A DNA stretch of 64,000 nucleotides from Elusimicrobiota bacterium (GTDB lineage Bacteria; Elusimicrobiota; Elusimicrobia; F11): NCBI GenBank assembly GCA_044221725.1, contig JBGAON010000003.1, positions 288,001 through 352,000 on the forward strand. The letters are read 5' to 3'. The translations under genes and the position numbers were made by a program. Each line of letters begins with the position of its first letter. Positions within the stretch are counted from its first letter, which is position 1. Shown piece by piece: positions 41,545 through 64,000 of the stretch. The notes under the pieces are model-generated. The model searched no databases, was not told where the DNA came from, and worked only from the letters and a program-made list of their open reading frames with translations.

Positions 41545-42288
41545 TTAGTTCGTGAGTTTTTTCAAGTATTCCTTCGTGAAATACTTGTCAGGGAGGGGGG
41601 CGACGATCATTTTGTCGTAAATTAGCACCGAATATTGGTCTTTGTTGACGGCGTCGCGCATCGTGAGTTTGGTGGGACGTAGCCCGCCGCCAAATTCCTT
41701 GTACGCTTCGTAGGTGCAAATTTTTAATAGCCGTCCAGAGAACGCGTAAAATTCGGCTTGGTAGGGACGGTAGTTCTTAACATCGACCCACAGGACCGCG
41801 CGGCCGTAGGTCACGTTTTCATTTTTAGCGGTCAGCATCAGCGTGTAATACTTCCGACCTTTCATTTCTTTTATCTTGATCAGTTCCGCGTCATAATCGG
41901 CCGAAAAGTTTGTGCGCGCGAGGTCGCCGTTCGCCACGTCGCCCGTGAGTCTTTCTTGCGCGGAAATCCGAATTGGCTTTGATACGTTCGGCATGAAGGC
42001 CCAAAAATTTTCGGTGTTCATAAGCAGCACCCGCCCTTTGTCGATGGCGGGTTCCAGCGTTTTCACGATGGCGTTTTCGCGGCCCTTCACCATTACGGAG
42101 TAAAGAGAATTGGCGGGCGCTCGATTCGGTTTAATGCTTGTCACCTTCACCTGCACCGTGTAATCGAGTTGGGGATTTCGTACTTCGTCGCACTTCGCGA
42201 CAATAGAGTTCGCGTCCGGTTCCGCTGCAAAGCTCGGAACAAAAACGAATCCAAAAATGATTGCTGGGATTAAGCGACCGCGGATCAT
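41545..42288 (-). CDS. Outer membrane lipoprotein-sorting protein (LolA-like)
   Basis: Signal peptide; KPIRISAQERLTGDVANGDL, YAFSGRLLK and RPT; ends LPDKYFTKEYL. Confidence 0.8.
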   Translation of the reverse strand: MIRGRLIPAIIFGFVFVPSFAAEPDANSIVAKCDEVRNPQLDYTVQVKVTSIKPNRAPANSLYSVMVKGRENAIVKTLEPAIDKGRVLLMNTENFWAFMPNVSKPIRISAQERLTGDVANGDLARTNFSADYDAELIKIKEMKGRKYYTLMLTAKNENVTYGRAVLWVDVKNYRPYQAEFYAFSGRLLKICTYEAYKEFGGGLRPTKLTMRDAVNKDQYSVLIYDKMIVAPLPDKYFTKEYLKKLTN

Positions 42289-42330
42289 TAACGAATTGTA
42301 ACGGCAAGTCGTTTTCTTATCAACGATTTT

Positions 42331-43284
42331 TTAACCGTTTGCAGCGAGCGGTAGTGAGGACGGAAGTATTTCAGAGAAATCGTATTCCGGATAAATGTTT
42401 TTCAGTGTGACAACTTGCTCCACCGTAAGATCGGAGTGAATCAACGGAGAGGCGTGGATCATTTCCTTTATGTTGTCGGGGGATAACCGAAGCATCCGCT
42501 TAAATTTCTCCGGGGAAGCGGGTGTGCCATAAAAAAGTTTGTAGGCAACGTGCGTTTGCGCTTGCGCCTCCGTTTCTCGAAAATTGAAATGGCGGGCGAT
42601 CGCCGGGTTGTTCCCAGCGATGGCGTAGTCCGTAAGGCCTCCCAGTGGCTGGAATTGGAGAAAATTGTAGAGCGTATCGTGCCGCGGATGGTAGCACGCC
42701 ACTATCTCCGCAATATCTGTTTTTGTGCGCACGTAATCAAAAATGACTTTGAAAAAATTAATGAGAATGAGCATTCGTTTCGACCGGGAAAACGTTTTGC
42801 TCGAAAGCGACCGATCGAATGCCAGAAGCGACGCTTCCGCGATTTGGCCTTTTTGTTTTCGCAGCACGTCGAGCTGTGCTTTGTAGTTTTTATCCATCGG
42901 CACACCGAGCGGCGAATCTTGAATTAACGTGAGCGTTGCGAGCACGTAACGTCGTTTATAAACCACGATGAATGTATGGTTGTTCGGCAATAACTGTTGA
43001 AGAACAAAGCGGGATTGGGTCTGTTGTGGCGCCTGAAGCTTTCGTTTCAAATATTCTTCGTAAACCAGGTGCGAAGCGACTTTGAGTTCTTCCATCGTTT
43101 GAACCGGACGAAATTCAAAATCTCTCATGTGCCAGGATGACAATCCTTTCCAAATCACCTGAAGGAGCGGCAAGGATTTGCCGTTGCTGAGAAAATTGCG
43201 CTGCGGATGGTTGTTTTCAATGAATGGTGCCGTGGCGGTGGCACGAGCGTTTGTCGAGCTGTTCAAGTCCGTGTCATTAAACAT
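42331..43284 (-). CDS. N-acyl amino acid synthase, FeeM-like GNAT (paralogue 1)
   Basis: HLVYEEY, ATLTLIQDSPLGVPMD, conserved Glu in IAEASLLA, HPRHDTLY and NPAIA. Confidence 0.78.
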   Translation of the reverse strand: MFNDTDLNSSTNARATATAPFIENNHPQRNFLSNGKSLPLLQVIWKGLSSWHMRDFEFRPVQTMEELKVASHLVYEEYLKRKLQAPQQTQSRFVLQQLLPNNHTFIVVYKRRYVLATLTLIQDSPLGVPMDKNYKAQLDVLRKQKGQIAEASLLAFDRSLSSKTFSRSKRMLILINFFKVIFDYVRTKTDIAEIVACYHPRHDTLYNFLQFQPLGGLTDYAIAGNNPAIARHFNFRETEAQAQTHVAYKLFYGTPASPEKFKRMLRLSPDNIKEMIHASPLIHSDLTVEQVVTLKNIYPEYDFSEILPSSLPLAANG

Positions 43285-43406
43285 GTTGTTGATTCGCCTC
43301 CCGTTGAAAGTCTAGCGGAATCGTCGTTCGTTACGTCGTGACTTTCGTCATCGCATGAATTCTTGCAACGGTCGTGCCAGAAGAAGCCGCGAAGAAACGC
43401 GTTGTT

Positions 43407-44453
43407 TTATGGGTGGGAAAAGAATTTTTCGAATTGTGTGTGCATACGGGAGGCTTCTTCGTAACCGAAGTCGATCAGACGAGCAATGTAGGAGGATTGA
43501 AACCGAAACGCGCGCGTCGAAAATTTCTTTTTCGTGATATCGCTCGTGTCAGAAAACTCATTGAGCAAGTTTTCGACATCTTTTGAAGGGGTGAGAACTT
43601 TAAGTTCAACGTCTTTCCCTAGCGAGGTTGAGTGCAAATCTCCCGTGAGCGGGTCATGACTTAACGCCTTAATAAGAACCTGGAACAGCAAAGCAGAATC
43701 TGTTTGGAAATCGCTCGGATAGGGATAAAGCGATCTCGGTTTGGGCGGTTGTGTGGAAATCGCCAAGATTTTTTTCGCTCCCATTTGAACGGCGGCCGTG
43801 AGCGGCTTTGTCATGTTAATAGAACCGTCGGCGAAATAATGTTCGTGGATTTTTACGGGCGGAAGAAAAAAAGGCACGCTGCAGCTGGCCACAACGTGTT
43901 GCGGACCGATTTCTTGAGGAAGCCCAATCGAATCGTTAAGGTGCCACGGGGTCACGCGGAGCCCTTCAATAAACCAAACAGGATAACAATGGACAACGTC
44001 CGTGGCTGCGATCGCCAGTCCGAGCGTCGATTCGTACCGGAAGTTCTCCATTAAACTTTGCCGATCAAAGCCCTTGTTAACGATGCGTTCGACCGCCTTT
44101 CCATCGAATAGAGACCAAAAACCTTCTTGTCGATTTAATTTTTTACGTGCATGGCGAAACAAGGACTTAATGAGGTTGGGCAGCGGTTGTTGGTAGTACT
44201 CGGGTACGTGAAAGCTTCTCCACATATCTTCGAGGACCAAGCGCTGCTGAAACGCGTGGGAGGAGCGACAAGCATAAAACGTGGTGTTTAAAGAGCCGCA
44301 TGAAATTCCCGAGAAAATTTGAAACGGGCTCCGTTCCGCTCGACAAAATTTTTCGTGAATATACGTGAGCACGCCGGCTTGATAAGCGCCCATCGCACCG
44401 CCGCCGCTGCACACCAGTCCAAATATCGGATGTTTTTTTTGTTCACTTTCCAT
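43407..44453 (-). CDS. Patatin-like phospholipase/acyl hydrolase
   Basis: SGGGAMGAYQAG; GISCG nucleophile motif; ASCSVPFF; ADGS. Confidence 0.85.
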   Translation of the reverse strand: MESEQKKHPIFGLVCSGGGAMGAYQAGVLTYIHEKFCRAERSPFQIFSGISCGSLNTTFYACRSSHAFQQRLVLEDMWRSFHVPEYYQQPLPNLIKSLFRHARKKLNRQEGFWSLFDGKAVERIVNKGFDRQSLMENFRYESTLGLAIAATDVVHCYPVWFIEGLRVTPWHLNDSIGLPQEIGPQHVVASCSVPFFLPPVKIHEHYFADGSINMTKPLTAAVQMGAKKILAISTQPPKPRSLYPYPSDFQTDSALLFQVLIKALSHDPLTGDLHSTSLGKDVELKVLTPSKDVENLLNEFSDTSDITKKKFSTRAFRFQSSYIARLIDFGYEEASRMHTQFEKFFSHP

Positions 44454-44506: not shown

Positions 44507-45748
44507 TTAGGAATGCTTCTTTATGGCGAGAACAGCGTTATGTCCACCGAATCCGAACGAGTTCGAAAGCGCGGCATTGATGTGAGCGGAGCGCGCAGAA
44601 TTCGGAACATAGTCCAAATCGCAGTCCGGATCCGGCTGTTCGTAATTAACGGTCGGATGGACCACTTTGTTTTCCATGCAGAGCAGCGTCGCGATCAGTT
44701 CCACACCGCCGGAGGCTCCGAGCAAATGTCCCGTCATTGATTTGGTGGCAGAAACCGGAATTTTTTTGGCGCGATCTCCAAAAACCATTTTTATCGCTTT
44801 CGTTTCGCTTTTGTCATTTAAAGTTGTGGCGGTTCCGTGCGCGTTTATATAGTCGATTTCAACGAATTCCATGTTAGCGTCGCGCAAGGCACCGCGCATC
44901 GCTTGTGCAGCGGCCGTGGCTTCGGGGCCGGGAGACGTGATGTGATAGGCATCGTTCGTGGCGGCGTACCCCGCTAGTTCCGCATAAATTTTTGCTCCGC
45001 GCCTTTTTGCGTGCTCTTCGGTCTCAAGCACAACGACGCCAGCACCCTCTCCCATTACAAATCCTGAACGCTTTCCGTCAAAAGGGCGGCTCGCTCGGTT
45101 CGGTTCGTCATTGAAGTTTGTGGTCATCGCCTTTGCTTGGCAAAAACCCGCAATCGCCGACGCCGTGATGGCGCTCTCCGAGCCACCGGCGAGAATCATG
45201 TCCGCGTCGCCATAGCGCAAATGTCGCAATGCCGACCCAATCGCGTGATTCGCCGTGGCGCATGCTGCTGAAACCGAATAGACGGGGCCCGTGAAGCCTG
45301 TGTGAACAGCAATTTGTCCGGCCGCTCCGTTGGTGACAAACATCGACAGAAGACGAGAGGAAACTTTGCGCGGACCGTCTTTCATGAGAATGGAGTGTTG
45401 CTGTTCAAGCGAAGGCAATCCGCCTATGCCAGATCCCACAATGACGCCAGCCCGGTCAAGCTCAACTTTGGTCAGATCAATTTCAGCATCGTTCAGCGCC
45501 ATACGAGCGGCGCATACTGCAAAAAGGCCAAACCGGTCGAGATGGCGCGACTGCTTCCGGTCAAGGTGATTCAGTGGGTCGAAATTCTGAACTTCCGCGT
45601 CAATCTTGCAAGGAGATTCGCTCGCATCGAAACGGGCGATTTTTCCAACTCCGTTTTTTCCGCCAGCTAGCGCTTTCCAAAAATCGGTGCATCCAATTCC
45701 AATGGGGCTTATTACACCGAGGCCTGTAATAACCACTTTTTTACGCAT
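44507..45748 (-). CDS. fabF: Beta-ketoacyl-ACP synthase II
   Basis: VVITGLG, SAACAT (catalytic Cys), NAHGT, GHLLGA and SNSFGFGGHN. Confidence 0.93.
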   Translation of the reverse strand: MRKKVVITGLGVISPIGIGCTDFWKALAGGKNGVGKIARFDASESPCKIDAEVQNFDPLNHLDRKQSRHLDRFGLFAVCAARMALNDAEIDLTKVELDRAGVIVGSGIGGLPSLEQQHSILMKDGPRKVSSRLLSMFVTNGAAGQIAVHTGFTGPVYSVSAACATANHAIGSALRHLRYGDADMILAGGSESAITASAIAGFCQAKAMTTNFNDEPNRASRPFDGKRSGFVMGEGAGVVVLETEEHAKRRGAKIYAELAGYAATNDAYHITSPGPEATAAAQAMRGALRDANMEFVEIDYINAHGTATTLNDKSETKAIKMVFGDRAKKIPVSATKSMTGHLLGASGGVELIATLLCMENKVVHPTVNYEQPDPDCDLDYVPNSARSAHINAALSNSFGFGGHNAVLAIKKHS

Positions 45749-46047: not shown

Positions 46048-46701
46048 TTAATGATTGGGCGCAACGTTTGGTTTGTCACTCGCTGTTGCCATTGTTTCGG
46101 TGATGAATCCGTTGATCTGTTGGCTGTAATTGATCGTCCCAAACTTTGAAGAAGTAATAAGCCGCGACATTTCTTCCGAAGGGGGTAGCTCCTCCCACTT
46201 TTTCAGTTCCGCCTTAGCTTTTTTTACCGAGCGAAACAGAAAGCAGTTTCGAATGAAGTGGAAGAACACTGTCAGCCCGGTTAGTTTGTGAAAATCTTGA
46301 ATCAACAGCGTCCCACCGGGCGCCAACACTCGTTTAATCCGCAACAAAAGTTCGTCCCGCGTCGCGAATTTATGGAATGAAAGACTGCTTACCACGACGT
46401 CGAACCATTGTTCTTTAAATTCCGCGCTGTTGGACAGATCACTTCGCGTAATTTTCCAGCTCGGACGTGACTTCCTCAGAACTTCTGAGACAAAACCCTC
46501 GTTTGTGCCAACCTCTAATACTTTCAAGCTGTGGTGGTGACCAACGAGATGGAGGATTTTCTCGACGAACTTCAATTGTTCGTCTCGATTTGGGTAATTC
46601 TCTTCGTCCACCATCGTCCCGATTTGAAATTTCGACTCAATCATCTCTTGAAGGTTGACCGGGCGTGATGCTTTCGTCAAGGATTTATCGCGAAAAAACA
46701 A
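46048..46701 (-). CDS. Class I SAM-dependent methyltransferase
   Basis: VLEVGTNEG, FDVVVSSLSFH and RVLAPGG; start uncertain. Confidence 0.75.
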   Translation of the reverse strand: MFFRDKSLTKASRPVNLQEMIESKFQIGTMVDEENYPNRDEQLKFVEKILHLVGHHHSLKVLEVGTNEGFVSEVLRKSRPSWKITRSDLSNSAEFKEQWFDVVVSSLSFHKFATRDELLLRIKRVLAPGGTLLIQDFHKLTGLTVFFHFIRNCFLFRSVKKAKAELKKWEELPPSEEMSRLITSSKFGTINYSQQINGFITETMATASDKPNVAPNH

Positions 46702-46746
46702 CCTAATACTTGTAAATGAATGCGTGACCCAGCATACTTTTTGATT

Positions 46747-48285
46747 ATGGGACGTTCGATCGAGTCGGCATTGAAATTGTGGAAAAAAGTATTGGGACCT
46801 GATTGTGCAGTGAACGACGCCGAAAGCTTGCGAGCTTATTCGAATGACACGACGGTCAATCCTCCAAAAGCTTCTGCGGTTTTAAAACCGAAAGATATTC
46901 AAAGTGTCCAGGCGATCGTCAAGATCGCTAATCATCACCGAGTGCCCATATATCCAATCAGTCGCGGAAAAAATTGGGGCTACGGTGCGGCGTGTCCCGT
47001 AAACGATGGCGACGTGGTTGTGGATTTGAGTGACTTAAACCGAATTGTTGACGTAAACACAGAACTTGCTTATTGCGTGATTGAGCCCGGCGTTACTCAG
47101 CAGCAGCTCTATGACCATTTAACCAACAACAAAATTCCACTTTGGATGGATGTGACCGGTGGTCCACCGGATTCAAGTTTAATTGGAAACGCATTGGAGC
47201 GCGGATTTGGACACACGCCATACGCGGACCATTTCCGGTCCATTTGCGGATTGGAAGTCGTGTTGCCGAGCGGTGAGCTGATCAAAACCGGATTTGGCCA
47301 TTTCCAAAACGCTCAAACGGCGCATCTTTATCCGTACGGTATCGGTCCGTATCTTGACGGGCTATTCACACAATCCAACTTTGGAATTGTCGTGCGAATG
47401 GGAGTTTGGCTCATGCCCAAGCCCGAGACGATGACCGCTTTCTTCGGGAAGATCGAGGATGATGCCGCCTTGCTGCACGTTGTCGAAAAGCTGCGCGTGA
47501 TGAAATTAAATCGTGATCTTCCAGGTTGCCTGCATATTGCGAACGCTCAACGCGTACTTTCCATGGGGGATTCCGCACCAAAAGACGTTAAGGCGTGGAA
47601 TTTTTCCGGCGCCTTTTACGGAGACTCGGCCGACGTCAAACTTAAAACCAGGAAACTTCTCAATCGGCTTCGAGATGTGGCTGAACTAAAATTTGTCGAC
47701 GAGCAAAAACTCAGGATCGCAAAAAAATTTCCGAATGCTTTGAAGACGCTGACCGGAGTCGATTTGCCAAGGATGTTGCCGGCATTGTCTTCTTTCTTTG
47801 GATTGTTGAAAGGTGTCCCGAACGGGCACGCTCTAAAAGGAGCATACTTCAGAAATCCCACGCCGGTACCGAGAAAAAATATCGATGCGGTGCGAGATAA
47901 TTGCGGTCTTTATTGGATTTCTCCGGTGATTCCTGCGCATCCCTCAGCGCTCACGCGCTTTCTAGCGCTTGTACGGCCCATATATAAGATGTTCGACTTC
48001 GATTTTCACGCAACATTGAATCTCGGAGAAGGACGAACCATTTGCGCGATCCTCTCCATTTCGTTCAACAAGTTTGACCACGCCGAAGCCGTTCGGGCGA
48101 GCCGCTGCTACGAAAAACTTTCGCGAGAATTAATTGGGGCTGGGTACGTGCCGTACCGCACCGGCGTGCAATCGATGCGTTCGGTTGTGAAGCGTAACGA
48201 TTCCTTTTGGAAATTCGTGAACACTCTTAAAGAGGGAATCGACCCAAATCAGATTCTTTCGCCAGGGAGATACAACATTGGATAA
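46747..48285 (+). CDS. FAD-linked oxidoreductase, VAO/p-cresol methylhydroxylase flavoprotein family
   Basis: PISRGKNWGYG, IEPGVT, GNALERGFG, YGIGPYLDGLFTQSNFGIV and DPNQILSPG. Confidence 0.88.
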   Translation: MGRSIESALKLWKKVLGPDCAVNDAESLRAYSNDTTVNPPKASAVLKPKDIQSVQAIVKIANHHRVPIYPISRGKNWGYGAACPVNDGDVVVDLSDLNRIVDVNTELAYCVIEPGVTQQQLYDHLTNNKIPLWMDVTGGPPDSSLIGNALERGFGHTPYADHFRSICGLEVVLPSGELIKTGFGHFQNAQTAHLYPYGIGPYLDGLFTQSNFGIVVRMGVWLMPKPETMTAFFGKIEDDAALLHVVEKLRVMKLNRDLPGCLHIANAQRVLSMGDSAPKDVKAWNFSGAFYGDSADVKLKTRKLLNRLRDVAELKFVDEQKLRIAKKFPNALKTLTGVDLPRMLPALSSFFGLLKGVPNGHALKGAYFRNPTPVPRKNIDAVRDNCGLYWISPVIPAHPSALTRFLALVRPIYKMFDFDFHATLNLGEGRTICAILSISFNKFDHAEAVRASRCYEKLSRELIGAGYVPYRTGVQSMRSVVKRNDSFWKFVNTLKEGIDPNQILSPGRYNIG

Positions 48286-48958
48286 ATTGGTAACCATAAA
48301 ATCAGTCACAAAGAATTATTTTCTGGGTAAGCAGACGTCCTCCGCTTTACGCGGAGTAAGCCTCAATATCGAACGCGGCGAATTCTTAGCGATTTCGGGT
48401 CCCTCGGGGAGCGGCAAAACCACCTTGCTGAATCTTATCGGGTGCATAGAAACTCCGACTCAGGGCAGCGTCATTATCGACGGGGTCGACGTAGGAACCC
48501 TAAGCTCGGATCAAAGTGCCGAATTAAAAATGAACAAAATCGGTTTTGTATTTCAGAATTTTAATCTGTTGCCAGTATTGACGGCGCTTGAAAATGTCGA
48601 ATACCCGCTTTTCCTAAAGCATGTTCCAAAGCTGCAGGTGCGAGAGCGGGCACGAAAAGCATTGGCCGATGTCGGGCTTGCTACGCGCGAAAATCACAAG
48701 CCGATGGAGATGAGCGGGGGGCAGCGACAGCGCGTCGCCATTGCGCGCGCCATCGTTTCCCAACCACAACTGGTGTTAGCCGATGAGCCGACGGCAAACC
48801 TCGATCATAGCACCGGGCTTGAGATTTTGGATCTCATGAAATCGATCAATGTTGCAAATCAAACGACCTTCATTTTCGCGACTCATGACCCGAAGGTGAT
48901 CGCTAAAGCATCCCGCAACGTGTCCATGATAGACGGACTTATCGAGGGGGACAAATGA
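48278..48958 (+). CDS. ABC transporter ATP-binding protein (LolD/MacB-like)
   Basis: GPSGSGKT, MSGGQRQR, LADEPTANLD and ATHD. Confidence 0.93.
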   Translation: MDKLVTIKSVTKNYFLGKQTSSALRGVSLNIERGEFLAISGPSGSGKTTLLNLIGCIETPTQGSVIIDGVDVGTLSSDQSAELKMNKIGFVFQNFNLLPVLTALENVEYPLFLKHVPKLQVRERARKALADVGLATRENHKPMEMSGGQRQRVAIARAIVSQPQLVLADEPTANLDHSTGLEILDLMKSINVANQTTFIFATHDPKVIAKASRNVSMIDGLIEGDK

Positions 48959-50211
48959 TTCTGAAACTTGGTTTCCGGAACGTTTTCCGACACAGGATTC
49001 GCTCACTCGTGGCATTATTTTCGGTGTCTTTCGGGTGTATTGGGATAATTTACTGCGGAGGATTCTTTGAAGACATTTTTATCGAGGTCCGCGAGAATCT
49101 CATCCATTCGTTAACGGGGCACATCCAATTAACTCGGGTCGGATTTCGAGAGTTAGGCCGATCCCGCCCATTCGAATTTCTTATCGATAATCCGGATGAA
49201 GTTTTGGATTTGACGCGAAAAATGCCGCACGTGGTAATGGCCACGCCTCGCCTGCACTTTTCTGGACTATTGAGTACCGGGGATAATTCAGTCTCTTTTG
49301 TTGGAGAAGGTATCGTTCCTCAGGATGACGCGTTCGTTATGGGAAAGGATGTCGAAAAAAACCGCGTTCTTCGCGGGGCGGGAGCGGTAATTGAGCAGGG
49401 AGAATCGCTTAGCAATGCGGATCCCTTTGGTATTAATCTCGGACGAGGACTGGCTGATAGTATTGGAGCAAAAGTCGGAGATAATCTGATTATGGTGGCG
49501 CGAACGGACGGTGGATCAATCAACGCGTTCGACGTCAGGGTTCGGGGAATTTTTTACACCGGATATAAACAAGCGGATGATTATTTCATTCGCATTCCTC
49601 TTTCGACCGCACAGCGCCTCCTTCGAACTTCTTCGGTTGATTCGATAATTGTGAATATCGATCTGACGAAAAATACATTCGATGTGCAGAAGGAATTTAA
49701 AAATGTGATTCGAAACAAAAAATTAGGGCTCGAGGTAAAGTCTTGGATTGAATTGAGTGATTATTATGTTGCCGTAAAAGCGCTGTTCGGTCGGATATTT
49801 CTCGTGATAAATATCGTGGTGGTTTTTTTGGTGGTATTCAGTATTTACAATACACTAAGCCTCGCTGTTTCGGAGCGCACTAACGAAATCGGTACACTGA
49901 TGGCGATGGGATCGAAACGTTCGGATATTGTAAAGCTGTTTATCGTAGAAGGTATGGCACTTGGAGCCATCGGCGGAGTATTCGGTTCTGCTATTGGTTG
50001 TGCCGTCACTTGGACGATTGCTCAAATTGGAATTCCTATGCCTCCGCCGCCGGGATTGGCCGTTGAGTGGACTGCTCGGCCCATCGTACTTCCTTTTAAT
50101 GTTTGTTTTGCGATGCTCGTGACTTTTTTGGCTTCTCTAATCTCTTCAATCTTTCCCGCGTATCGCGCCGCGAAGATGGAGATTGCTCAATGTTTGAGAA
50201 GTTCTAACTAA
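48955..50211 (+). CDS. ABC transporter permease (LolC/E, FtsX-like)
   Basis: RNVFRHRIRS; TM, large periplasmic domain and three TMs; ERTNEIGTLMAMG. Confidence 0.9.
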   Translation: MILKLGFRNVFRHRIRSLVALFSVSFGCIGIIYCGGFFEDIFIEVRENLIHSLTGHIQLTRVGFRELGRSRPFEFLIDNPDEVLDLTRKMPHVVMATPRLHFSGLLSTGDNSVSFVGEGIVPQDDAFVMGKDVEKNRVLRGAGAVIEQGESLSNADPFGINLGRGLADSIGAKVGDNLIMVARTDGGSINAFDVRVRGIFYTGYKQADDYFIRIPLSTAQRLLRTSSVDSIIVNIDLTKNTFDVQKEFKNVIRNKKLGLEVKSWIELSDYYVAVKALFGRIFLVINIVVVFLVVFSIYNTLSLAVSERTNEIGTLMAMGSKRSDIVKLFIVEGMALGAIGGVFGSAIGCAVTWTIAQIGIPMPPPPGLAVEWTARPIVLPFNVCFAMLVTFLASLISSIFPAYRAAKMEIAQCLRSSN

Positions 50212-51430: not shown

Positions 51431-51435
51431 TTCGC

Positions 51436-52608: not shown

Positions 52609-52609
52609 A

Positions 52610-52867
52610 TCAGTTTGTGGAGTCCTTTCGCTCAATGTACTCGTTTATTCGTAGAGGTCTTGGTCCGATTCGTTTGCCGTCGAGTTTGTCGACAATATAG
52701 CTGACATCCGTCGTATCCATGTCCACATAAGCGTAGGCATCGAACGTCGCATTCTCCATATCTTCAAATAATTGCACATTGGCGACTTTGCCAAACGGTT
52801 CGAACAGCGACCGGATTTCATCTCGAGTAAATCCGAACGGCATGCATCCGACAAAAATTCGTTTCAT
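52610..52867 (-). CDS. Single RRM RNA-binding protein
   Basis: RNP2 RIFVGCMP, LFEPFGKV, RNP1-like YAYVDM and LRINE; ATGA overlap with upstream gene. Confidence 0.82.
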   Translation of the reverse strand: MKRIFVGCMPFGFTRDEIRSLFEPFGKVANVQLFEDMENATFDAYAYVDMDTTDVSYIVDKLDGKRIGPRPLRINEYIERKDSTN

Positions 52868-56304: not shown

Positions 56305-56378
56305 AGGCTATCCGGAAGGTGCTCATCGGCGTGTAAGACTATGTCAGGCTTCTGTCAGCACGCGATTCGTGTTGATTT
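56305..56378 (-). promoter_or_regulatory. Triple direct-repeat operator/promoter, copy B (synthase 2)
   Basis: Plus-strand GTAAG-N5-GTCAG-N6-GTCAG at 56333-56358, 22 nt from -10-like TAGCCT; TTCGTGTTGATTT at 56366-56378. Confidence 0.7.
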
Positions 56379-56436
56379 TTAAATATGTCTTTCCGTCGGT
56401 GAGATGGCCGTTATACTTTTCGATAGGGCCGAATTT

Positions 56437-58383
56437 ATGGCCCGTCATCCCATGAGATCACGAACCTTCACGCGCGCGATGTTGATAGCTTTGATGCTCG
56501 GAACCGTGCTTCCGTGCCCGCTATTTGCTGGGCAGACTGACACTGGACACGCGGGTACGGTTGCGGCGCCTTTCTTGCAACTGAACTCCAGCGTTCGCAG
56601 TGCTGCTCTCGGCGGCTATCAAGCGGCGCTTTCGGGCGATCTTCAGTCGCAATTCTCGAATCCCGCCGGATTGGCCAATGTGAGTTCGCCAGAATTGTGG
56701 TTCTCGCACAATCAATCGATTGAAAAGACGAAAGTGGACTCGCTGGGATTTGCGTCGAATCTAAAATCAAACGCGCTGTCGTTCGCGATTCAGCAATTTG
56801 GTTACGGATCCGCAGACCGGGTGGATCTCGATGCAAGCGGTAATCCCGTTACGGGACAGGGTAGTTTTAGTTTTTCAACCACGCTTCTCGAGGCTGGATG
56901 GGCGCGCCCTGTTGGTGATTCGCCGATCACTGAAAAAATAGCCGTCGGCGCTGTTGCCAAAGGATGGCGTGACAGCCAAGCCGGAACGTCGAAAACAGGC
57001 TGGGCCGGAGATATTGGCGTTCAATGCTACGGCTTGTTGTTTCAATCGCTTGATCTTGGATTGTCTGCTAGGAACTTTGGGCCCTCGGTCGACGGCTACA
57101 ATCTGCCACGCAGCATTGCCATTGGCGGCGCTTATCACATTGTTCCGCATGAAAGCGTTCTTAAACGTGTAAGCGTATTTTCCGAACTCGATATTCCTCG
57201 TCAACAAAGTGCCGTTCTTCGTTCGGGATTTGAACTTAATCAAAATTGGGTGTGGGAACGCCTCGGGTTTGAAAACGTCAATAATCATCCCGAAGATTCA
57301 TTGAGTCGTTTTTCATTCGGCGCCGGCATTCGGATAAAGAATCTCAAATTGGATTATGCGTGGTCCCCGCAAGGAGACCTTGGTGATATTCACAGGTTGT
57401 CACTTCAAGTGGGCTTTGGACTTACGCCGGAAGAAAAAAGAGACATGGCAAAAAATATCGACGCGGCTATTCAAAAGAGGTCGATTGAGAAATCTTCGAG
57501 CTTTATCGCGTTGGCGCAGCAGGCGATGAAAGAAGGGAAATGGAAGGTCGCACAAGGCAATCTTGAGACAGCTCTGATCTGGAGCCCTAGAGATGAAAAG
57601 ACCCGAGAGCTTTTGCAATCGGTGCAAGACAAAGCGCGCTATTCGGAATCGCGGTTGTTGTACCAGGAAGGCATGGAACTGTTTCAAGACGAACAATGGC
57701 TCGACGCAGCGCTTAAATGGGAACAAGTATTAAAGATTGATCCAAAGAACAAAAACGCTCGGCAAAATCTCATTGTGGCGCGCGATAAAATGGCGCGCGC
57801 AGGCTCCCAAAGAAAGGCCGAACTATCCGCTGCCGAAAAGGCGTTCGACCGCGGGACGCGTGCTTATCTGGATGGACGGTACGACGACGCGATCAACGAA
57901 TGGATGATGGTCAAAAAGTTGGCGCCGGGCACGCACGACATCAATACTTACATCGTGAAAGCGAAGAACATGAAGTTAACGGAGGAAGTCACAAAGCTTA
58001 AGAAAGAAGCGGCTCCCGAGAATTCAATGGCGGAGACGCTTTCGCAAGAAGCGTATACGTGGTACAGCCTTGGTCAAATCGATAAGGCTGTGGAAAACTG
58101 GGAAAAAGTTTTGGTGCTTGATCCTTCCAACGCCGATGCAAAGGCAGCGCTAAAAGAAGCGCGCGCACGCAAAAATTTATCTAAAAATGAAAGCCCACCC
58201 CAAACATCTGGAAAGGTCACGGAGTTAAACGCAGCAGCACTGAAAAATTACCGCGAAGGGAATCTCGATGCCGCGGCCGCCAATTGGCGCAAAGCGCTTC
58301 AGATTGATCCGCACAATGTTTGGATTCGCAGTTATTTAAATCGGGTCGAACGTGAAATTACGGATAGGGAGAACAGTCGTTGA
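56437..58383 (+). CDS. PorV/PorQ-like outer membrane barrel fused to a TPR array
   Basis: Signal peptide; APFLQLNSSVRSAALGG...SNPAGLA; LDYAWSPQGDLGDIHRLSL; C-terminal TPRs (WEKVLVLDP, WRKALQIDP). Confidence 0.75.
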   Translation: MARHPMRSRTFTRAMLIALMLGTVLPCPLFAGQTDTGHAGTVAAPFLQLNSSVRSAALGGYQAALSGDLQSQFSNPAGLANVSSPELWFSHNQSIEKTKVDSLGFASNLKSNALSFAIQQFGYGSADRVDLDASGNPVTGQGSFSFSTTLLEAGWARPVGDSPITEKIAVGAVAKGWRDSQAGTSKTGWAGDIGVQCYGLLFQSLDLGLSARNFGPSVDGYNLPRSIAIGGAYHIVPHESVLKRVSVFSELDIPRQQSAVLRSGFELNQNWVWERLGFENVNNHPEDSLSRFSFGAGIRIKNLKLDYAWSPQGDLGDIHRLSLQVGFGLTPEEKRDMAKNIDAAIQKRSIEKSSSFIALAQQAMKEGKWKVAQGNLETALIWSPRDEKTRELLQSVQDKARYSESRLLYQEGMELFQDEQWLDAALKWEQVLKIDPKNKNARQNLIVARDKMARAGSQRKAELSAAEKAFDRGTRAYLDGRYDDAINEWMMVKKLAPGTHDINTYIVKAKNMKLTEEVTKLKKEAAPENSMAETLSQEAYTWYSLGQIDKAVENWEKVLVLDPSNADAKAALKEARARKNLSKNESPPQTSGKVTELNAAALKNYREGNLDAAAANWRKALQIDPHNVWIRSYLNRVEREITDRENSR

Positions 58384-60149
58384 AGTCGGCGTCCTTGAAG
58401 TTTCTCGCCTGGGTCTTGTTCTTCTTGGCAATTTCATGTCCGGTATTTGCGATCTATTGGACTTTGGTCGATCCGTCGGCCATTCCGTATGACCGCCGAG
58501 AAGTCGCTCCAGCAGCGTTCAACGGATATTTCTATGTTGCGTCCGCAACGGCGCCTCTTAACTCTGGAATCTTTCCGACACGAGTCTTCAGATCCGCGGA
58601 CGGATTGAGTTGGACGTTAGCGAACAATTTCGGAAACAATATTCAGATTACGCAGCTCATTGCTAACGGCCAAAACTTGTACGCGTTTGTCGATGATCGA
58701 CTGGGGGCTTACCATGTTTATCGAAGTGCCGATGGATTAACGTGGACGGACGTTTACACTGGCATGGGAAACAGTTATTTCATGCCTCTCGTGTCTTTTG
58801 GCGGCTTCATTTATCAATTTGATAGTTCCGCTGGCTTTACAATAAGAAAGTCCGACGGATTAGGGAATCCATTGACGTGGCAGATCGTGTCGCAAGGACC
58901 CGGAACAATTACTCCAAATTTTCCAGTCAAGGCAACGGAATTTCAAAACGAAGTTTACGTATTGTCTTACAGCGGGTCAGGGCCCACGTACGACATAAAT
59001 ATTTTCAAGTCCCCGGATCTCGGAAATTGGACTCTTTCAAAATTGATACCAAACAATATTCCCCGTCCGAGCTTAGCAGCTTGTTCGTCTGGTCTGTATT
59101 CAGGACTCGGGGACGTATGGAGGCTTCCAAGTTCTACCGAGACTTGGGCCATTGATCTTGCGGGCCCCCTCAACGGAACAATTTATCCCATGAAAGTTTT
59201 CGGACATACACTCGCTTTCCGGCCTGGGCCGACGCAGGGAAATCCTCAGACTAGCCAAGACGATTTATTGGTTCGCTCCTCGTCAGGTAGCTGGTCAATC
59301 GATTCCACGTGCCAAGGAATTGGTGCCCCTACATTTGAGACTTTACCGATATCCATAGCGGATATAGCCTATATTCCGGCTTGCACATCGGCGAGGATTT
59401 TTAAAGACGGGTTGGTTTCGCTCGCACGTAAAACATTTATCTTGCCGACGTTGAGCTTTGACCAAAGAGACGCCACCCTATCCGCGATGACCTTGACGAT
59501 AAACCTCGATGAAACTTTAACGTCATTCGTCGTTGAAAACCTGGGTTCCGCGAGAGCAACGACCGATATTAAACGCTTGCAACTGCTCCGTTCGCGATTC
59601 GTTGCGAGTGTCGAGACTTTCACGACGGTGTGTGAGTTGGCCGCTGACTCTGATACCAAAACTTGGCGCATGCCGAACGGTACTCAAGTATCGCTTCAGG
59701 ATCAGGACAATTTGTACGTAACAGCGGATATCGCAAGCTTTCCGACCAATTTGGCAACGGTACAGCTGTCGGTGACGTCAATGGGATGGGCAAGAAATAT
59801 TTCCTACACGCCGCCACTTCCGCTTGTTGCGCCGCAGTCGATCGCGATCAACGGCAATCCGTCCGCTCCTACTACAATCTCGGACGTTCTTCCGTCGCCC
59901 CAACCGGCGAGCAATCAAGTGAAGTTTTTTTACGACCTCAACTCTATGGCTGACGTGCACATAAAAATTTTCAATGTGACAGGGGAACTTGTTAGTCAAG
60001 TTTCAGATACAGGAAAAGCGGCCGGCCGAAATTCGTCCATCTGGGATTCAACGAAGGTCGCCTCCGGAGTTTATTACGCCACCGTTGAGATTATTGAGCA
60101 GAGTGGCGGAACAAGGCGCTACCGCAAAACGGTGTACATTAAAAAGTGA
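58380..60149 (+). CDS. Secreted beta-rich protein with BNR/Asp-box-like repeats and a C-terminal T9SS-CTD/FlgD-Ig-like domain
   Basis: Signal peptide; repeats RSADGLSW, RSADGLTW and KSPDLGNW; tail PSPQP...IKIFNVTGELV...WD...VASGVYY...KTVYIKK. Confidence 0.7.
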   Translation: MKSASLKFLAWVLFFLAISCPVFAIYWTLVDPSAIPYDRREVAPAAFNGYFYVASATAPLNSGIFPTRVFRSADGLSWTLANNFGNNIQITQLIANGQNLYAFVDDRLGAYHVYRSADGLTWTDVYTGMGNSYFMPLVSFGGFIYQFDSSAGFTIRKSDGLGNPLTWQIVSQGPGTITPNFPVKATEFQNEVYVLSYSGSGPTYDINIFKSPDLGNWTLSKLIPNNIPRPSLAACSSGLYSGLGDVWRLPSSTETWAIDLAGPLNGTIYPMKVFGHTLAFRPGPTQGNPQTSQDDLLVRSSSGSWSIDSTCQGIGAPTFETLPISIADIAYIPACTSARIFKDGLVSLARKTFILPTLSFDQRDATLSAMTLTINLDETLTSFVVENLGSARATTDIKRLQLLRSRFVASVETFTTVCELAADSDTKTWRMPNGTQVSLQDQDNLYVTADIASFPTNLATVQLSVTSMGWARNISYTPPLPLVAPQSIAINGNPSAPTTISDVLPSPQPASNQVKFFYDLNSMADVHIKIFNVTGELVSQVSDTGKAAGRNSSIWDSTKVASGVYYATVEIIEQSGGTRRYRKTVYIKK

Positions 60150-61504
60150 AATTAAAAACAAAATTCATCGTGGCGATGTCGACGCTAGTGACGGTCTCCG
60201 TGCTGGTAGGCGGAGCACTGAACATCGTCGGCGAAAGGCGACTTCTGAAGCGTGAAATGAACGCCCAACAACAAGAAACGATGAAACGACTTGCGCGGGT
60301 ATGCGAAGAATCGCTCTATCAAAAAAATCTTAGTTTCTTTAATTATCTTCCAACGCTTGAATCTGAACGAGGATTCAAAGCAGCGTTTTTCGAAGATTCC
60401 ACAGGAATCATCCAAATGCATTCGGATCCCGAACAAATGGGGAAGAAAATCCCTGCGGTGAATAGTGATTTATTGGATTTATCAGAGCCCATTACCTACG
60501 CCGGCACGCGCGTGGGAAATGCGCATCTTATTTTGTCGAAAACAGAAGTGGACAAGCTTTTCATGGAATCGTTGATGGATGCGGTTCAACGCACAATCAT
60601 CACAATGCTTGCCTCATTGTTGCTTGGGTGGTTTGGCGCCTTATTTCTCGGAAGCACAATGATCACACCCATTCAGCGCCTCATCGACGGGTTCAGAAAA
60701 GTTGCAACAGGCGCGCTGGAACCGATCGCGTTTCCGGAACGTCATGACGAGTTGGGGCAAACATTCAAAGAACTGAACGTAACCATCGAAAAATTAAAAG
60801 AAATGGAAGATATGAAGCGGAATTTCTTCGCGCAGGTAACGCACGAACTTCGCTCGCCGCTCACGACGAATCAAGGGTTTCTCAGTTTGATCCTTCGTGG
60901 CCGGTACGGCACGCTCAACGACGAACAGCGCGGATTGTTTCTCACCATGCACAACAATCTGGATCGACTAGCTCGGCTGGTCGACGATCTTTTAACGACG
61001 TCGAAACTTGAAAGCAAGAAAGAAACTTTGGAACCGACTCAATTCGATGCCAAGAAAGTGGTGCAGGAAGTTATCGAGATGTACGTGCCTCTTTTTGAAC
61101 AGAAAAAGCTAAAGCTTGCCACCAACTTCCCGAACGAAGCGGTAATGATTCGAGCGGACTACGACAAATTAATTCACATTCTTTCCAATTTGATCTCAAA
61201 CGCGATCAAGTACACACCCAAAGGTTCGGTTTCAATAGGAATAAAAGAGCAGGGCGCCAACGTCGCTATTTGGGTCACCGATACGGGACTCGGAATTCCG
61301 GCTTCGGACCAACCACAGATCTTCAATCACTTTTTTCGAAGTTCGAACGCAAAAAACGTGAAGGGAACCGGTTTGGGATTGGCGATTGTGAAGAATCTGG
61401 TGGAAATGCATGGCGGGCAAATTCGTGTGGACGAGAATCCCGGGGGGGGATCAATTTTTTCTTTTTCGCTTCCGAAGAAAATAGGGATGAAAAAGGCCGC
61501 GTGA
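60146..61504 (+). CDS. HAMP-domain sensor histidine kinase
   Basis: Two TMs; HAMP DELGQ; THELRSPL, NAIKY, DTGLG and GTGLGL; GTGA overlap with upstream gene. Confidence 0.92.
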   Translation: MKLKTKFIVAMSTLVTVSVLVGGALNIVGERRLLKREMNAQQQETMKRLARVCEESLYQKNLSFFNYLPTLESERGFKAAFFEDSTGIIQMHSDPEQMGKKIPAVNSDLLDLSEPITYAGTRVGNAHLILSKTEVDKLFMESLMDAVQRTIITMLASLLLGWFGALFLGSTMITPIQRLIDGFRKVATGALEPIAFPERHDELGQTFKELNVTIEKLKEMEDMKRNFFAQVTHELRSPLTTNQGFLSLILRGRYGTLNDEQRGLFLTMHNNLDRLARLVDDLLTTSKLESKKETLEPTQFDAKKVVQEVIEMYVPLFEQKKLKLATNFPNEAVMIRADYDKLIHILSNLISNAIKYTPKGSVSIGIKEQGANVAIWVTDTGLGIPASDQPQIFNHFFRSSNAKNVKGTGLGLAIVKNLVEMHGGQIRVDENPGGGSIFSFSLPKKIGMKKAA

Positions 61505-62185
61505 CTACTCGGAGTCGAGTCTGTAGCCTACGCCACGGAGGCTTCGTAACAAATCGCGATTGGAGCCCAACTTTTTTCGGATTTGGTCGATCATCGTGTC
61601 CATTCGACGCGACAGTCGCGAAACGTCCGCTCCCCACACCGCTTCGGAAATGGTTGCTCGCGTCAGCACCTTACCTTCGTTCTTTGCCATAAACGCAAAC
61701 AATTCAAATTGTTTTGCTGACAGATCCAGTTGTTCATCGTCCATAAACACCGCGTACTTATCGAAATCGACTCGGAAAGGACCACAAACAAGCTCGCGCG
61801 ACTTTTGAGATCCGTCCTGGCGCCGAAATGCGGCTCTCACGCGCGCGAGAAGCACCGGTTCGCGCATCGGTTTCTCAATGTAATCTTCGGCGCCAATTTC
61901 AAGGCCCGCCACAACGTCAGCATCGTCGGCTTTGACGCTAACAAAGATGATGGGCACGTTTTGGGTGCTCTTATCTTCTTTCATTGCGCGACAAACATCC
62001 AGCCCGTTCATTTGAGGCATGCATACATCTAATAGTAGGAGGTCTGGAGGATCTGCTTTGATTTTCGGAAGAGCTTTCGTGGGATCGGTTTCTGAAACAA
62101 CGGTATATTCGTGCAAACCCAAAATTTTTTTAGCGAGCTCGATGCAGGACGGTTCGTCATCGACCACGAAGATCCGTTTCTTCAT
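61505..62185 (-). CDS. OmpR/PhoB-family response regulator
   Basis: VVDDE, LLDVCMP and GAEDYIEKP receiver; winged helix ending LRGVGYRL. Confidence 0.93.
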   Translation of the reverse strand: MKKRIFVVDDEPSCIELAKKILGLHEYTVVSETDPTKALPKIKADPPDLLLLDVCMPQMNGLDVCRAMKEDKSTQNVPIIFVSVKADDADVVAGLEIGAEDYIEKPMREPVLLARVRAAFRRQDGSQKSRELVCGPFRVDFDKYAVFMDDEQLDLSAKQFELFAFMAKNEGKVLTRATISEAVWGADVSRLSRRMDTMIDQIRKKLGSNRDLLRSLRGVGYRLDSE

Positions 62186-62253: not shown

Positions 62254-62976
62254 TTACGCTGGGCGGCTTTTCTTTGTGGCAATAACCTCCAATAGATGTC
62301 CCAACGTGGCTGCGCGAGGGGCCGCGAACCCGGCGAGCTCGGCTTTGCCCAAGAGTTCGTTAACTTCGTCCGGTTTGTAGGCGGCGCGAAGGCTTTCAAC
62401 GTATTGCTTGCTCATCTGGATGGATCCCATCGAAATGGCTCCGCCCATAAATAGCAACGGAAAGAGAGCATTGTGCGGACGGCGCAAGTCTTGCAGCAGA
62501 ATGATGCCACCGGGAACGAGCACGCGTTTCATTTCTTCCAGCATGGCCAGCGCGTCGGGAAATTCGTGCAGCGCGAAATGGCTCACAATAATGTCGAAAT
62601 GTTCGGAGGGGAAGCCGGTTTTTTCGGCAAAACTCTTTACGAAACTCACGTTTTCCATTCCCTGGCAATGACGACGAGCTTTTTCGAGCATGAGATCTGA
62701 CGCATCGAGCCCGATGATTTCCCAATTTGGCCGCTCTTTGTGGAGTTCTTTCGGAATCCACCCGGGGCCGGTGCCGAGATCCAAAACTTTCAGTTTAGAG
62801 AAGCGGCCCGCGAAACTCAAAATACGTTTAATAAAGAGTCCACGTTCCCACCGGACGAGCCCTTTGTCCATTCGGTCGTTATAAATTTCGACTTCTGCCA
62901 CTTCATCGTAGCGGGAATCTTTTTCCGGAATACGGGCGGATTTCGTTGCCCATTCAGCATTTGGCGCGCGTTCCAT
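62254..62976 (-). CDS. Class I SAM-dependent methyltransferase
   Basis: VLDLGTGPG, GLDAS, FDIIVSHFALH and RVLVPGG; GGAGG SD. Confidence 0.88.
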   Translation of the reverse strand: MERAPNAEWATKSARIPEKDSRYDEVAEVEIYNDRMDKGLVRWERGLFIKRILSFAGRFSKLKVLDLGTGPGWIPKELHKERPNWEIIGLDASDLMLEKARRHCQGMENVSFVKSFAEKTGFPSEHFDIIVSHFALHEFPDALAMLEEMKRVLVPGGIILLQDLRRPHNALFPLLFMGGAISMGSIQMSKQYVESLRAAYKPDEVNELLGKAELAGFAAPRAATLGHLLEVIATKKSRPA

Positions 62977-63003
62977 TGTAAAGCCTCCTTTCCCTCTGCT
63001 GTC

Positions 63004-63076
63004 AGGGTAATAGAGGAGGCTTCATCGGCGGGTAAGCTTATGTCAGGAGTATGTCAGCAATAAATGAGTTGATTTT
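63004..63076 (-). promoter_or_regulatory. Triple direct-repeat operator/promoter, copy C (methyltransferase)
   Basis: Plus-strand GTAAG-N5-GTCAG-N6-GTCAG at 63032-63057, 22 nt from -10-like TACCCT; GTTGATTTT at 63068-63076. Confidence 0.7.
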
Positions 63077-64000
63077 AGAAGTGATATTCCACTTCGATGT
63101 ATCCGCGGTCTTTGTTTTCGAAAATACCGAAATGGCCTTGATTCGGGTGGCCCTCGAAAATATCGGCACCCAACTTTGTGACGATGTGATCGCCGAAGCG
63201 GAGCGTAATTTTGGGACGATGCAATCGGTCTCTGCGACTTGGGTCGGTCAGAACCAGGTATTCCGGTTCCAGCTTTTTGTCGAGCAACGGCCATTTCACC
63301 CAAAATGTCCAAAGGCTGCTGCTCGGGCGTTCGTTTACGAGTTTATCGCCCGCGTCAGAAATTATTTTTTGGCTGAATTGGACATTTGTGTCGAGCGGGC
63401 CATATTGCCGCGACAAGCCGACCACATAGTTGAATGTGTCCTTGCGAGTGACGCCGTCCGTATCGGCGATGTCTGAGGTAGAGTAATAGCTATCCGGTTT
63501 GAGGTTTGCTTCGCCTTTGAGAATCGAGTCCCACAGGAAGTCTTTAGAAAGTGTCAACCCAAAGATATTTTGCCGCCGATATCCTGGCGCAAAATGGAAT
63601 CCGGAAAAATCGATGGTGCGAAAATAGATGGGAGATTTCTCCCAGGTGTAGAGCGCGAACGCGCTGATGTCGAGCCCGGCTACGAGCCGCGAAATCTTTG
63701 CTCCGGCATCCGCGCTGTCGGAACCGGTCGGTTCCGTGGGATCCTTCGTCGTTGTCGGTACCCCGGAAGGCGCGGGCAGGGGAAATGCAAACTCCGATCC
63801 TTGCACCGCAAATTTGTTGAATTCGGGCTTCGCAGCGAACAGTTCAAGATTCGCAATGTTGTGCGTGATGGACAGGTCCGCCGCCCACTGCGGTATTCGG
63901 ATTAAATCGAATTCGGGCAAAATGTATTCACGCAAGTCGATACCGTTTGCCACATCCGCGATGAACAGCGAAATCGCATCGCCCCACACGATTTGTTGTT
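63075..64000 (-). CDS. DUF1302-like outer membrane beta-barrel protein (5' end beyond the window)
   Basis: QQIVWG...DVANGIDLRE; alternating beta-strand pattern; ends FGIFENKDRGYIEVEYHF with a terminal Phe. Confidence 0.7.
   Translation of the reverse strand, partial: QQIVWGDAISLFIADVANGIDLREYILPEFDLIRIPQWAADLSITHNIANLELFAAKPEFNKFAVQGSEFAFPLPAPSGVPTTTKDPTEPTGSDSADAGAKISRLVAGLDISAFALYTWEKSPIYFRTIDFSGFHFAPGYRRQNIFGLTLSKDFLWDSILKGEANLKPDSYYSTSDIADTDGVTRKDTFNYVVGLSRQYGPLDTNVQFSQKIISDAGDKLVNERPSSSLWTFWVKWPLLDKKLEPEYLVLTDPSRRDRLHRPKITLRFGDHIVTKLGADIFEGHPNQGHFGIFENKDRGYIEVEYHF

Follow-up and report, generated by a model that had tools for sequence, protein, structure and literature searches.

A genomic island with two FeeM-type synthases in an Elusimicrobiota genome: a candidate N-acyl amino acid lipid pathway with its own sensor module

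Do the lipid, export and sensor genes that lie side by side in the genome of an uncultured Elusimicrobiota bacterium form one pathway, and what might this pathway make? The window (the whole stretch of 64,000 nucleotides that was analyzed; G000:C5:288001-352000, in a genome of 2.82 Mb, 94% complete) had been put forward in a preliminary description as carrying an N-acyl amino acid cluster with two synthases of the FeeM type. All open reading frames (ORFs) named there lie where it placed them and belong to the families it assigned, but its inventory left out an RRM-domain gene, a DUF1302 gene and a module of four genes (PorV-type barrel, cargo, kinase and regulator), all inside the same coordinates. 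We consider it reasonably probable that this region, a genomic island, makes an N-acyl-tyrosine lipid, converts it to an enamide, perhaps glycosylates it, and exports it under control of its own regulator.

Synthases, flavoprotein and acyl supply

The two paralogous acyltransferase genes (synthases 1 and 2; 31% identical to each other) were searched with PF21926, the Pfam FeeM family (cut-off 27 bits), and against PDB, where FeeM (2g0b) is the sole significant sequence match of both. Their earlier assignment as FeeM-type paralogs was borne out, and unrelated GNATs are excluded as their identity by the profile scores and the 2g0b matches. In alignments, Glu150 of synthase 1 and Glu161 of synthase 2 fall on the Glu at position 96 of the 2g0b chain, the proposed catalytic Glu95 of FeeM; in the homolog Nas354 the matching Glu is described as required for activity, based on mutation (PMC4897644). 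The carrier-contact residues His145/Phe148 are both retained in synthase 2; synthase 1 has the His, but Leu for Phe. By sequence, both ORFs are FeeM-family synthases, predicted to transfer acyl chains from acyl carrier protein (ACP) to an amino acid. Such genes are sparse: a control search with PF21926 gave a match in 1 of 14 genomes, and 18 of 301 genomes of the phylum have matches, 12 of them over the cut-off. A word-index search with synthase 2 returned two homologs, a related-locus search of genome contigs with the same query none. The genome has a third FeeM gene on contig C3, 42% identical to synthase 2. In the synthase tree, all synthases of family f1 fall into one clade (97/99); the partner group of synthase 1 was not resolved.

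The flavoprotein between the synthase genes matches VAO/PCMH members in PDB (E 7e-85 to 5e-52). Its Tyr88, Tyr479 and Arg480 are conserved among relatives, and we take them to be the counterparts of Tyr108, Tyr503 and Arg504 in the phenolate pocket of VAO. The position of VAO Asp170 (numbering from PMC7617285) is taken by Gly here and by Gly or some other small residue in synthase-linked members, so that there would be space for an N-acyl group. The VAO/PCMH 4-phenol oxidases, as described, include FeeG and CndG (PMC11350588).

No ACP gene was found in the island, in its gaps or beyond position 64000. The preliminary description had allowed for one beyond 64000 or for use of the housekeeping ACP; the former did not hold, and housekeeping genes resume there. 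Since the island has no ACP gene and the genome has a single one, located in the fab operon on another contig, the housekeeping ACP is, judged from this 94%-complete genome, the sole option. The island's FabF is 65% identical to the housekeeping copy, and no homolog of its patatin was found with this query in 17 selected genomes.

Limits and gene content of the island

The region is one island, as the preliminary description had supposed: its flanking genes abut in three relatives. It comprises 23,228 bases, beginning with the LolA-like gene at 41545 and ending at 64772 with the start of the DUF1302 gene, and lies between a Ser/Thr kinase gene and a cNMP-domain gene. Five genomes were queried for the empty site. 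The cNMP-domain gene directly adjoins the Ser/Thr kinase gene in three of them, namely G001 and G002 of the same genus and G004 of the same family; G003 and G007 are uninformative, with the flanks on separate contigs or one flank absent. No long terminal repeats were found at the island ends. The AT-richer center noted earlier was confirmed (GC 0.465 at 49.0–55.2 kb versus 0.527 at 1–41.5 kb), and the 5-kb segment at 47–52 kb has a lower GC content than 98% of 562 such segments of the genome. The features are as follows.

41545..42288, minus strand: LolA-like periplasmic carrier, left edge of the island (PF17131, 155.5 bits)
42331..43284, minus: FeeM-family N-acyl amino acid synthase 1 (Glu150, His202; PF21926, 87.7 bits; 2g0b, E 2.9e-11)
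43407..44453, minus: patatin-like acyl hydrolase, accessory (PF01734; GXSXG and DG motifs)
44507..45748, minus: second FabF, ketoacyl-ACP synthase II (TIGR03150, over cut-off; Cys-His-His intact)
46048..46701, minus: degenerate S-adenosylmethionine (SAM) methyltransferase MT1 (shortened in frame by about 24 residues relative to its paralog MT2)
46720..48285, plus: VAO/PCMH 4-phenol-oxidizing flavoprotein, FeeG/CndG-like candidate (PF01565; VAO/PCMH members in PDB)
48278..48958, plus: LolD/MacB-type ATP-binding cassette (ABC) ATPase
48955..50211, plus: FtsX/LolC-type ABC permease (PF02687; TIGR02212 below cut-off)
50204..51430, minus: GT1-type (EryCIII/MGT-like) glycosyltransferase (PF06722, 44.7 bits; TIGR01426 below cut-off)
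51436..52635, minus: PP-loop ATP pyrophosphatase, uncharacterized subfamily (SGGKDS, four conserved Cys)
52610..52909, minus: single RRM-domain protein, partner of the PP-loop gene (PF00076)
52864..54048, minus: GH5-like glycoside hydrolase, accessory (PF12876, 253.8 bits; no signal peptide seen)
54175..55160, minus: membrane desaturase/hydroxylase pseudogene (two His boxes in ORF 54339–55160, third in another frame)
55306..56271, minus: FeeM-family N-acyl amino acid synthase 2 (Glu161, His216, Phe219; PF21926, 108.5 bits; 2g0b, E 9.1e-13)
56326..56358, minus: predicted operator 1, in the gap between the divergent genes of synthase 2 and PorV (two CTGACA half-sites at an 11-bp period, then CTTACNCGCCGA)
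56404..58383, plus: PorV/PorQ-family outer-membrane barrel with C-terminal TPRs (NF033709, 105.1 bits, cut-off 90)
58380..60149, plus: exported cargo with type IX-like C-terminal sorting domain (TIGR04183, 24.4 bits, cut-off 23)
60146..61504, plus: membrane histidine kinase (HAMP-HisKA-HATPase)
61505..62185, minus: OmpR/PhoB-family response regulator (PF00072 and PF00486)
62254..62976, minus: intact SAM methyltransferase MT2, directly upstream of the regulator
63025..63057, minus: predicted operator 2, with the motif of operator 1, ahead of MT2 and the regulator
63075..64000, minus, continuing to window-equivalent 64772: DUF1302 outer-membrane barrel, right edge of the island (PF06980, 58.4 bits)

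To the left of the island (35797–41493) lies a conserved core operon of a cNMP-domain gene and genes for a membrane Ser/Thr kinase, a PP2C phosphatase, a double FHA protein and an M23 peptidase. The island splits this operon between its first two genes, those of the cNMP-domain protein and the kinase, and the former is displaced to the right edge.

Near-identical DNA is present in bioreactor and wastewater sequencing runs. Contigs of RNA runs span parts of the island and carry no evidence of transcription, because DNA may be present in such runs. Runs X2 and X4 share two substitutions in synthase 1 (window 43020 and 43023), and in run X8 one contig carries an additional base in MT2 (window 62618, depth 5.4); these are strain variants or errors. 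A depth-2 contig of X7 joining 55311 to 62916 was set aside as too weak. Elsewhere in the genome, a single open frame of about 13,700 codons was seen at G000:C3:407277-448385.

Recurrence of the core genes

Whether the genes belong together was assessed at loci of flavoprotein homologs. The flavoprotein occurs in 11 of 251 genomes of the class and in none of three of the same genus. Twenty loci of close homologs were fetched: 14 come from the class, among them two that are probably halves of a single gene, and six from other phyla. A FeeM gene is found at five, a PP-loop gene at four and a lipid-cassette or export marker at 13 of them; 11 loci of distant homologs have neither a FeeM gene nor such a marker. 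In a Melainabacteria genome (L027), desaturase, flavoprotein, permease, ABC, LolA-like, DUF1302 and synthase genes lie within 8.4 kb, and at L048 LolA-like, DUF1302, synthase, permease and ABC genes stand together. The proposal that synthase, flavoprotein and export genes co-occur in other genomes was thus confirmed. Because the same genes recur together, including at L027, the core (synthase, flavoprotein and LolA-like/DUF1302/ABC export) is, by its gene content, a real and mobile cassette. The accessory genes appear to travel more loosely. A FeeM gene is the neighbor of a GT1 homolog (20–30% identity) at 5 of the 14 loci fetched; 15 had been found in all, in 17 genomes, the majority of which were chosen because they carry such genes. 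The GH5-like family is restricted to this genome among the 251 of the class.

Some loci of this survey have features of their own. At L048 (G315:C146), genes for PorV, a large TPR protein and apparent ExbB/ExbD/TonB lead straight into the LolA-like, DUF1302, synthase and ABC genes. In Desulfobacterota-type genomes (L028, L029, L031), close flavoprotein homologs lie amid kinases and regulators without a FeeM gene. Genomes of family f10 (G035, G329, G344, G041, G028; loci L023, L046, L053, L074, L076, L081, L112, L116, L117, L121) carry many mix-and-match cassettes, up to 14 loci per genome, assembled from FeeM/GNAT, ThiF-nitroreductase, flavoprotein, PP-loop, GT1, thioester reductase and MMPL genes; several are headed by an FG-GAP cargo, PorV, a kinase and a regulator. 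Two unusual fusions were seen, one of a seven-transmembrane sensor, a methyltransferase and a VAO flavoprotein (L046:12098-15103, 1001 aa), the other of a GMC oxidoreductase and GT1 (L053:7001-9943, 980 aa).

A sensor module and its predicted operator

Synthase 2 and MT2 are separated by the genes for PorV-TPR, cargo, kinase and OmpR-type regulator. This set of four also flanks the third synthase on C3 (25–48% identity) and a synthase in G004, and all three loci of the best kinase matches among the 251 genomes (island, C3 and G004) have the module beside a FeeM gene. On these gene neighborhoods, the link between module and synthase seems real for this subclade and loose in general. In total, 27 PorV-like genes were counted in the genome. 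At the C3 locus (G000:C3:523341-529800; L016:13339-19800), the third FeeM gene comes with a regulator, kinase, cargo and PorV of its own, and tailoring genes are absent; at its 5′ end the FeeM gene touches or overlaps the divergent regulator gene. The cargo itself has no homologs besides itself in our searches. An N-terminal beta-propeller, seen in a structure model and in an Atlas match (0.78), is a lead only, because the model is of low confidence (predicted local distance difference test, pLDDT, 49.6).

TGTCAG-N5-TGTCAG occurs twice in the window (0.13 expected) and nowhere else in the genome: one copy precedes synthase 2, the other MT2 and the regulator. Read on the coding strand, each site consists of two half-sites at an 11-bp period followed by CTTACNCGCCGA, and the region upstream of the G004 synthase has the same layout in register. 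The pattern built from these three sites has no other exact match in the 251 genomes, and two hits with one mismatch against five for a reversed control. Regulators of the PhoB family are described as binding direct repeats of this kind (PMC10294691). Upstream of what look, from their translations, like the genome's phoB and pstS genes lie CTGTCA repeats of the same period, with a half-site one base different and without the tail. Since, in addition, the recognition helix of the island regulator differs from that of the genome's PhoB, the island's own regulator is the likelier binder of the predicted operators. In the apparent ppk / phoB-phoR / porin / pstS-pstC region itself (G000:C3:145600-151400), the CTGTCA repeats are clear, and some 30 bases are found duplicated ahead of both promoters.

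This arrangement raises the possibility of a closed loop, an extension of the pathway proposed above rather than a replacement of it: the lipid would be a cell-density or surface signal, captured by the PorV-held propeller and passed to the kinase, and the regulator would induce more synthase, much as in quorum sensing. We regard this as rather unlikely at present. In its favor, synthase and module were kept together through duplication despite the divergence of the copies, the operators precede both a synthase and the regulator's own operon, and the exact motif occurs only in the two of 251 genomes that carry this kinase subtype, the pattern having been built from their three sites. Moreover, modules are enriched about four-fold at lipid loci of five f10 genomes (6 seen versus about 1.4 expected by chance), a count in which the genomes are kin, the modules are clustered and one kinase position was added from separate data. 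On the other hand, lipid genes are missing from most modules and modules from most lipid loci, the cargo proteins vary between families (FG-GAP repeats in f10), and the co-location may stem from shared accessory islands.

The PP-loop enzyme

The PP-loop enzyme scores 85.6 bits against TIGR03573 (WbuX), below the cut-off of 203.2. Its subfamily, with 88 representatives at E 1e-30, has invariant Cys and SGGKDS. The structure model (pLDDT 93) has as its nearest fold an N-acetyl sugar amidotransferase, 8wex (TM 0.56, 17% identity). Seven orthologous copies were found in 5 of 250 other genomes of the class, all of family f10: three adjoin a flavoprotein gene, one lies within 12 kb of a flavoprotein and a synthase gene, one adjoins a PorV-kinase-regulator-ThiF block, and two have no cassette gene. 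The RRM gene is adjacent to the PP-loop gene at L057 and L076 and fused to it in P0004. Among eight long homologs scanned, six are fused to a thioester-reductase domain and one to an AMP-binding domain. A metagenome scan with the PP-loop alignment, with relatives from 3 of 64 parts of the collection, gave distant relatives only, and no match was found in plasmids. Most probably the protein adenylates carboxylates in lipid secondary metabolism; it appears to form a subfamily of its own, so far undescribed, that travels with the flavoprotein.

Such an enzyme would have a different part to play if the carboxyl group were kept, i.e., if the flavoprotein oxidized the side chain (to dehydro- or hydroxy-tyrosine) and the PP-loop enzyme activated the carboxyl in the role of ThiF in oxazolone and stieleriacine pathways. 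The adjacency to the flavoprotein at three of seven loci, the fusion of seven of the eight long homologs to thioester-reductase, AMP-binding or carrier domains, and the lack of a match to cassette-type ThiF or nitroreductase in this genome are in line with this route. We nevertheless judge it rather improbable: FeeG and CndG, the only characterized synthase-linked members in the accounts cited here, decarboxylate; L046 and L074 have PP-loop and ThiF-like genes both nearby; and the nearest fold is a sugar amidotransferase.

Decay and mosaic structure

The preliminary description had spoken of extensive tailoring, including two SAM methyltransferases and a desaturase; of these, MT2 is intact. 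The desaturase is frameshifted near 54340–54390, where its ORF stops (54339) after two His boxes and the third lies in another frame. An assembly error as the cause is ruled out, because contigs of five runs from two studies (X1 and X2 from one sample; X6, X7 and X8 from a second study) bridge the break unaltered. MT1 is 25% identical to MT2, lacks about 24 residues after SAM motif I and is likely inactive. Given the broken frame and this loss, desaturation of the product by the island seems unlikely and MT2 would be the only credible methyltransferase. A homolog of MT2 lies near a flavoprotein in G004 (L050). With the GH5-like, patatin and FabF genes at none of the 20 related flavoprotein loci, the claim of extensive tailoring did not hold up.

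The island might then be a decaying patchwork of small cassettes, inserted successively at one hot spot, that yields plain N-acyl amino acids or nothing and has no joint pathway. The two decayed genes, at least five transcription units (among them a flavoprotein-ABC-permease run on the plus strand), GC content at third codon positions between 0.45 and 0.63 across the island, a GH5-like gene unique among 251 genomes and a patatin not found in 17 would fit. This explanation is unlikely in our view: the outermost genes, LolA-like and DUF1302, are neighbors in other clusters (L027, L045, L048), one operator motif is common to two separate operons, and 18 of 20 genes have intact frames.

Proposed pathway and its significance

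From the observed families, catalytic residues, island limits, recurrence of the core and shared motif, we infer the following chemical steps and binding for an exported N-acyl-tyrosine enamide. The single ACP of the cell would provide the acyl chains, and FabF and patatin of the island would adjust their supply. The synthases would couple these chains to an amino acid; the likeliest one is Tyr, given that the flavoprotein alongside is a member of the 4-phenol oxidases. The flavoprotein would then decarboxylate the N-acyl-Tyr to an enamide, as FeeG and CndG do; GT1 would glycosylate the phenol and MT2 may methylate. The PP-loop enzyme could adenylate a carboxylate, either on the sugar or on a branch in which the carboxyl is kept, in preparation for amidation or transfer. 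The lipid would reach the surface by way of the ABC permease, the LolA-like carrier and the DUF1302 barrel. The kinase may read an outside cue, perhaps via the PorV-held cargo, upon which the regulator would bind the tandem repeats and drive the synthase 2 operon as well as MT2 and itself. Desaturase and MT1 presumably contribute nothing any longer.

A number of observations weigh against this reading. The fetched DNA of 15 of the 20 close-flavoprotein loci lacks a FeeM gene; GT1, GH5-like, patatin and FabF are present at none of them, so the exact gene set has been seen once. The amino acid acceptor was read from a neighboring gene only, two island genes are decayed, and neither a synthase nor a flavoprotein was found near 15 distant metagenome relatives of the PP-loop enzyme. 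As to regulation, the operator was not found at the third-synthase module on C3, and the three linked module loci are not independent because they come from two genomes of one family. Among 20 further kinase loci (of the next 24; four at contig ends were skipped), none has a FeeM gene, eight have PorV and two have other cassette genes. Of the 21 PorV-kinase modules in the five f10 genomes, 6 lie no more than 8 kb from a cassette gene, and a module is present at 6 of 41 lipid loci.

Under phosphate starvation, phosphorus-free lipids replace phospholipids. That the repeats are pho boxes of the cell's PhoB, with amino-acid lipids and glycolipids replacing phospholipids and the patatin recycling acyl chains, would agree with the 11-bp period, the half-site one base from the CTGTCA repeats and the binding of direct repeats described for PhoB (PMC10294691), but is very unlikely, since the full motif with its 12-base tail is absent from the genome's pho promoters and has no exact match in the other 249 genomes of the class, a dedicated outer-membrane exporter and a flavoprotein oxidase are ill-suited to bulk membrane replacement, and the recognition helix of the island regulator differs. 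The alternatives considered here overlap, and their likelihoods are not meant to sum to one.

If the island makes an exported N-acyl-tyrosine lipid as proposed, this would be the first natural-product pathway for this uncultured lineage (none was found in a literature search) and would supply a substrate for the uncharacterized PP-loop subfamily. The sensor module with its operator and this subfamily are stronger grounds for interest than the range of tailoring genes, some of them dead or incidental. No literature on a synthase tied to PorV/type IX cargo or to a private kinase-regulator pair was found (few subscription journals were covered), and the sensor coupling of an acyl-tyrosine cluster appears to be undescribed. 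What N-acyl amino acids do in bacteria is, by published accounts, largely unknown (PMC11959600, PMC4897644). In its boldest form, which we hold to be doubtful, the island is a self-contained Elusimicrobiota signal circuit: a FeeM lipid, LolA-like/DUF1302 export, a PorV-held type IX beta-propeller as sensor, private kinase-regulator feedback on the synthase via the operator, and a PP-loop enzyme adding a modification new to such lipids. If true, this circuit would be a new quorum-sensing architecture and would give bacterial N-acyl amino acids their first assigned role; should the sensor prove unresponsive to the lipid, the island is one more hyellamide-like cluster. It offers a compact test system of two synthases, a predicted operator and a regulator that likely binds it.

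Comparison with known systems

The fee cluster has a desaturase in its neighborhood. As far as it is described in the accounts used here, this cluster of soil environmental DNA comprises the synthase FeeM, the ACP FeeL and the flavoprotein FeeG (PMC8762209, PMC11350588, PMC11685415, PMC11959600). The island shares with it a FeeM-family synthase with the catalytic Glu and a VAO/PCMH flavoprotein in one locus. In contrast to the fee cluster so described, it has two synthases and neither a dedicated ACP (the counterpart of FeeL) nor an acyl ligase, and it adds GT1, PP-loop/RRM, GH5-like, patatin and FabF genes, LolA-like/DUF1302/ABC export and the PorV-cargo-kinase-regulator module. Lacking an ACP, it is not a fee cluster proper.

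Hyellamide of Hyella patelloides is described as a glycosylated N-acyl-tyrosine enamide, with a proposed cluster (hye) that has a FeeG homolog, a glycosyltransferase and no ACP (PMC11959600). Flavoprotein, glycosyltransferase and the lack of a cluster ACP are common to both. However, the proposed hye acyltransferase is of the SGNH/GDSL type, not FeeM, and hye has a sugar acetyltransferase; the account as used here mentions no export or sensor module (PMC11959600), whereas the island has both. Because the acyltransferase family differs, the island is not a hye cluster.

Stieleriacine clusters, as reported, combine several synthases with a methyltransferase and a desaturase (PMC7293339), and together with the thalassotalic acid, kyonggic acid and tyz clusters they have one to four N-acyl amino acid synthase genes with methyltransferase and desaturase genes nearby, as here (PMC7293339, PMC12479983, PMC10404671). 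According to the same descriptions, stieleriacine-type clusters rely on ThiF and a nitroreductase, and their products keep or cyclize the carboxyl (PMC7293339, PMC12479983, PMC10404671). In our genome there is no nitroreductase match and only a distant ThiF, on another contig; without cassette ThiF or nitroreductase, the island is not an oxazolone/stieleriacine cluster.

A two-component pair, PrsK/PrsR, accompanies the PEP-CTERM system. In PEP-CTERM/exosortase systems, N-acyl amino acid synthases have been tied to surface-protein sorting (cited in PMC7293339 and PMC4897644). The genetic link between a synthase and surface-protein sorting is the likeness; the sorting partner in the island is instead a PorV barrel with type IX-like cargo, and its kinase-regulator pair is private to the cassette. 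No exosortase/PEP-CTERM genes were found among the island proteins, the rest of the genome not having been searched for them. The PP-loop enzyme, for its part, resembles the N-acetyl sugar amidotransferases of the WbuX/PseA type (TIGR03573; 8wex) in its N-terminal Cys cluster, its SGGKDS PP-loop and its best fold match, but its neighbors are lipid genes, not O-antigen genes, and it stays below the TIGR03573 cut-off.

The earlier statement that the island could not be matched to a described pathway was too strong, since hyellamide (PMC11959600) and stieleriacine (PMC7293339), as described, come close. By analogy, the island would work like the fee and hyellamide pathways, with a core chemistry that is already known.

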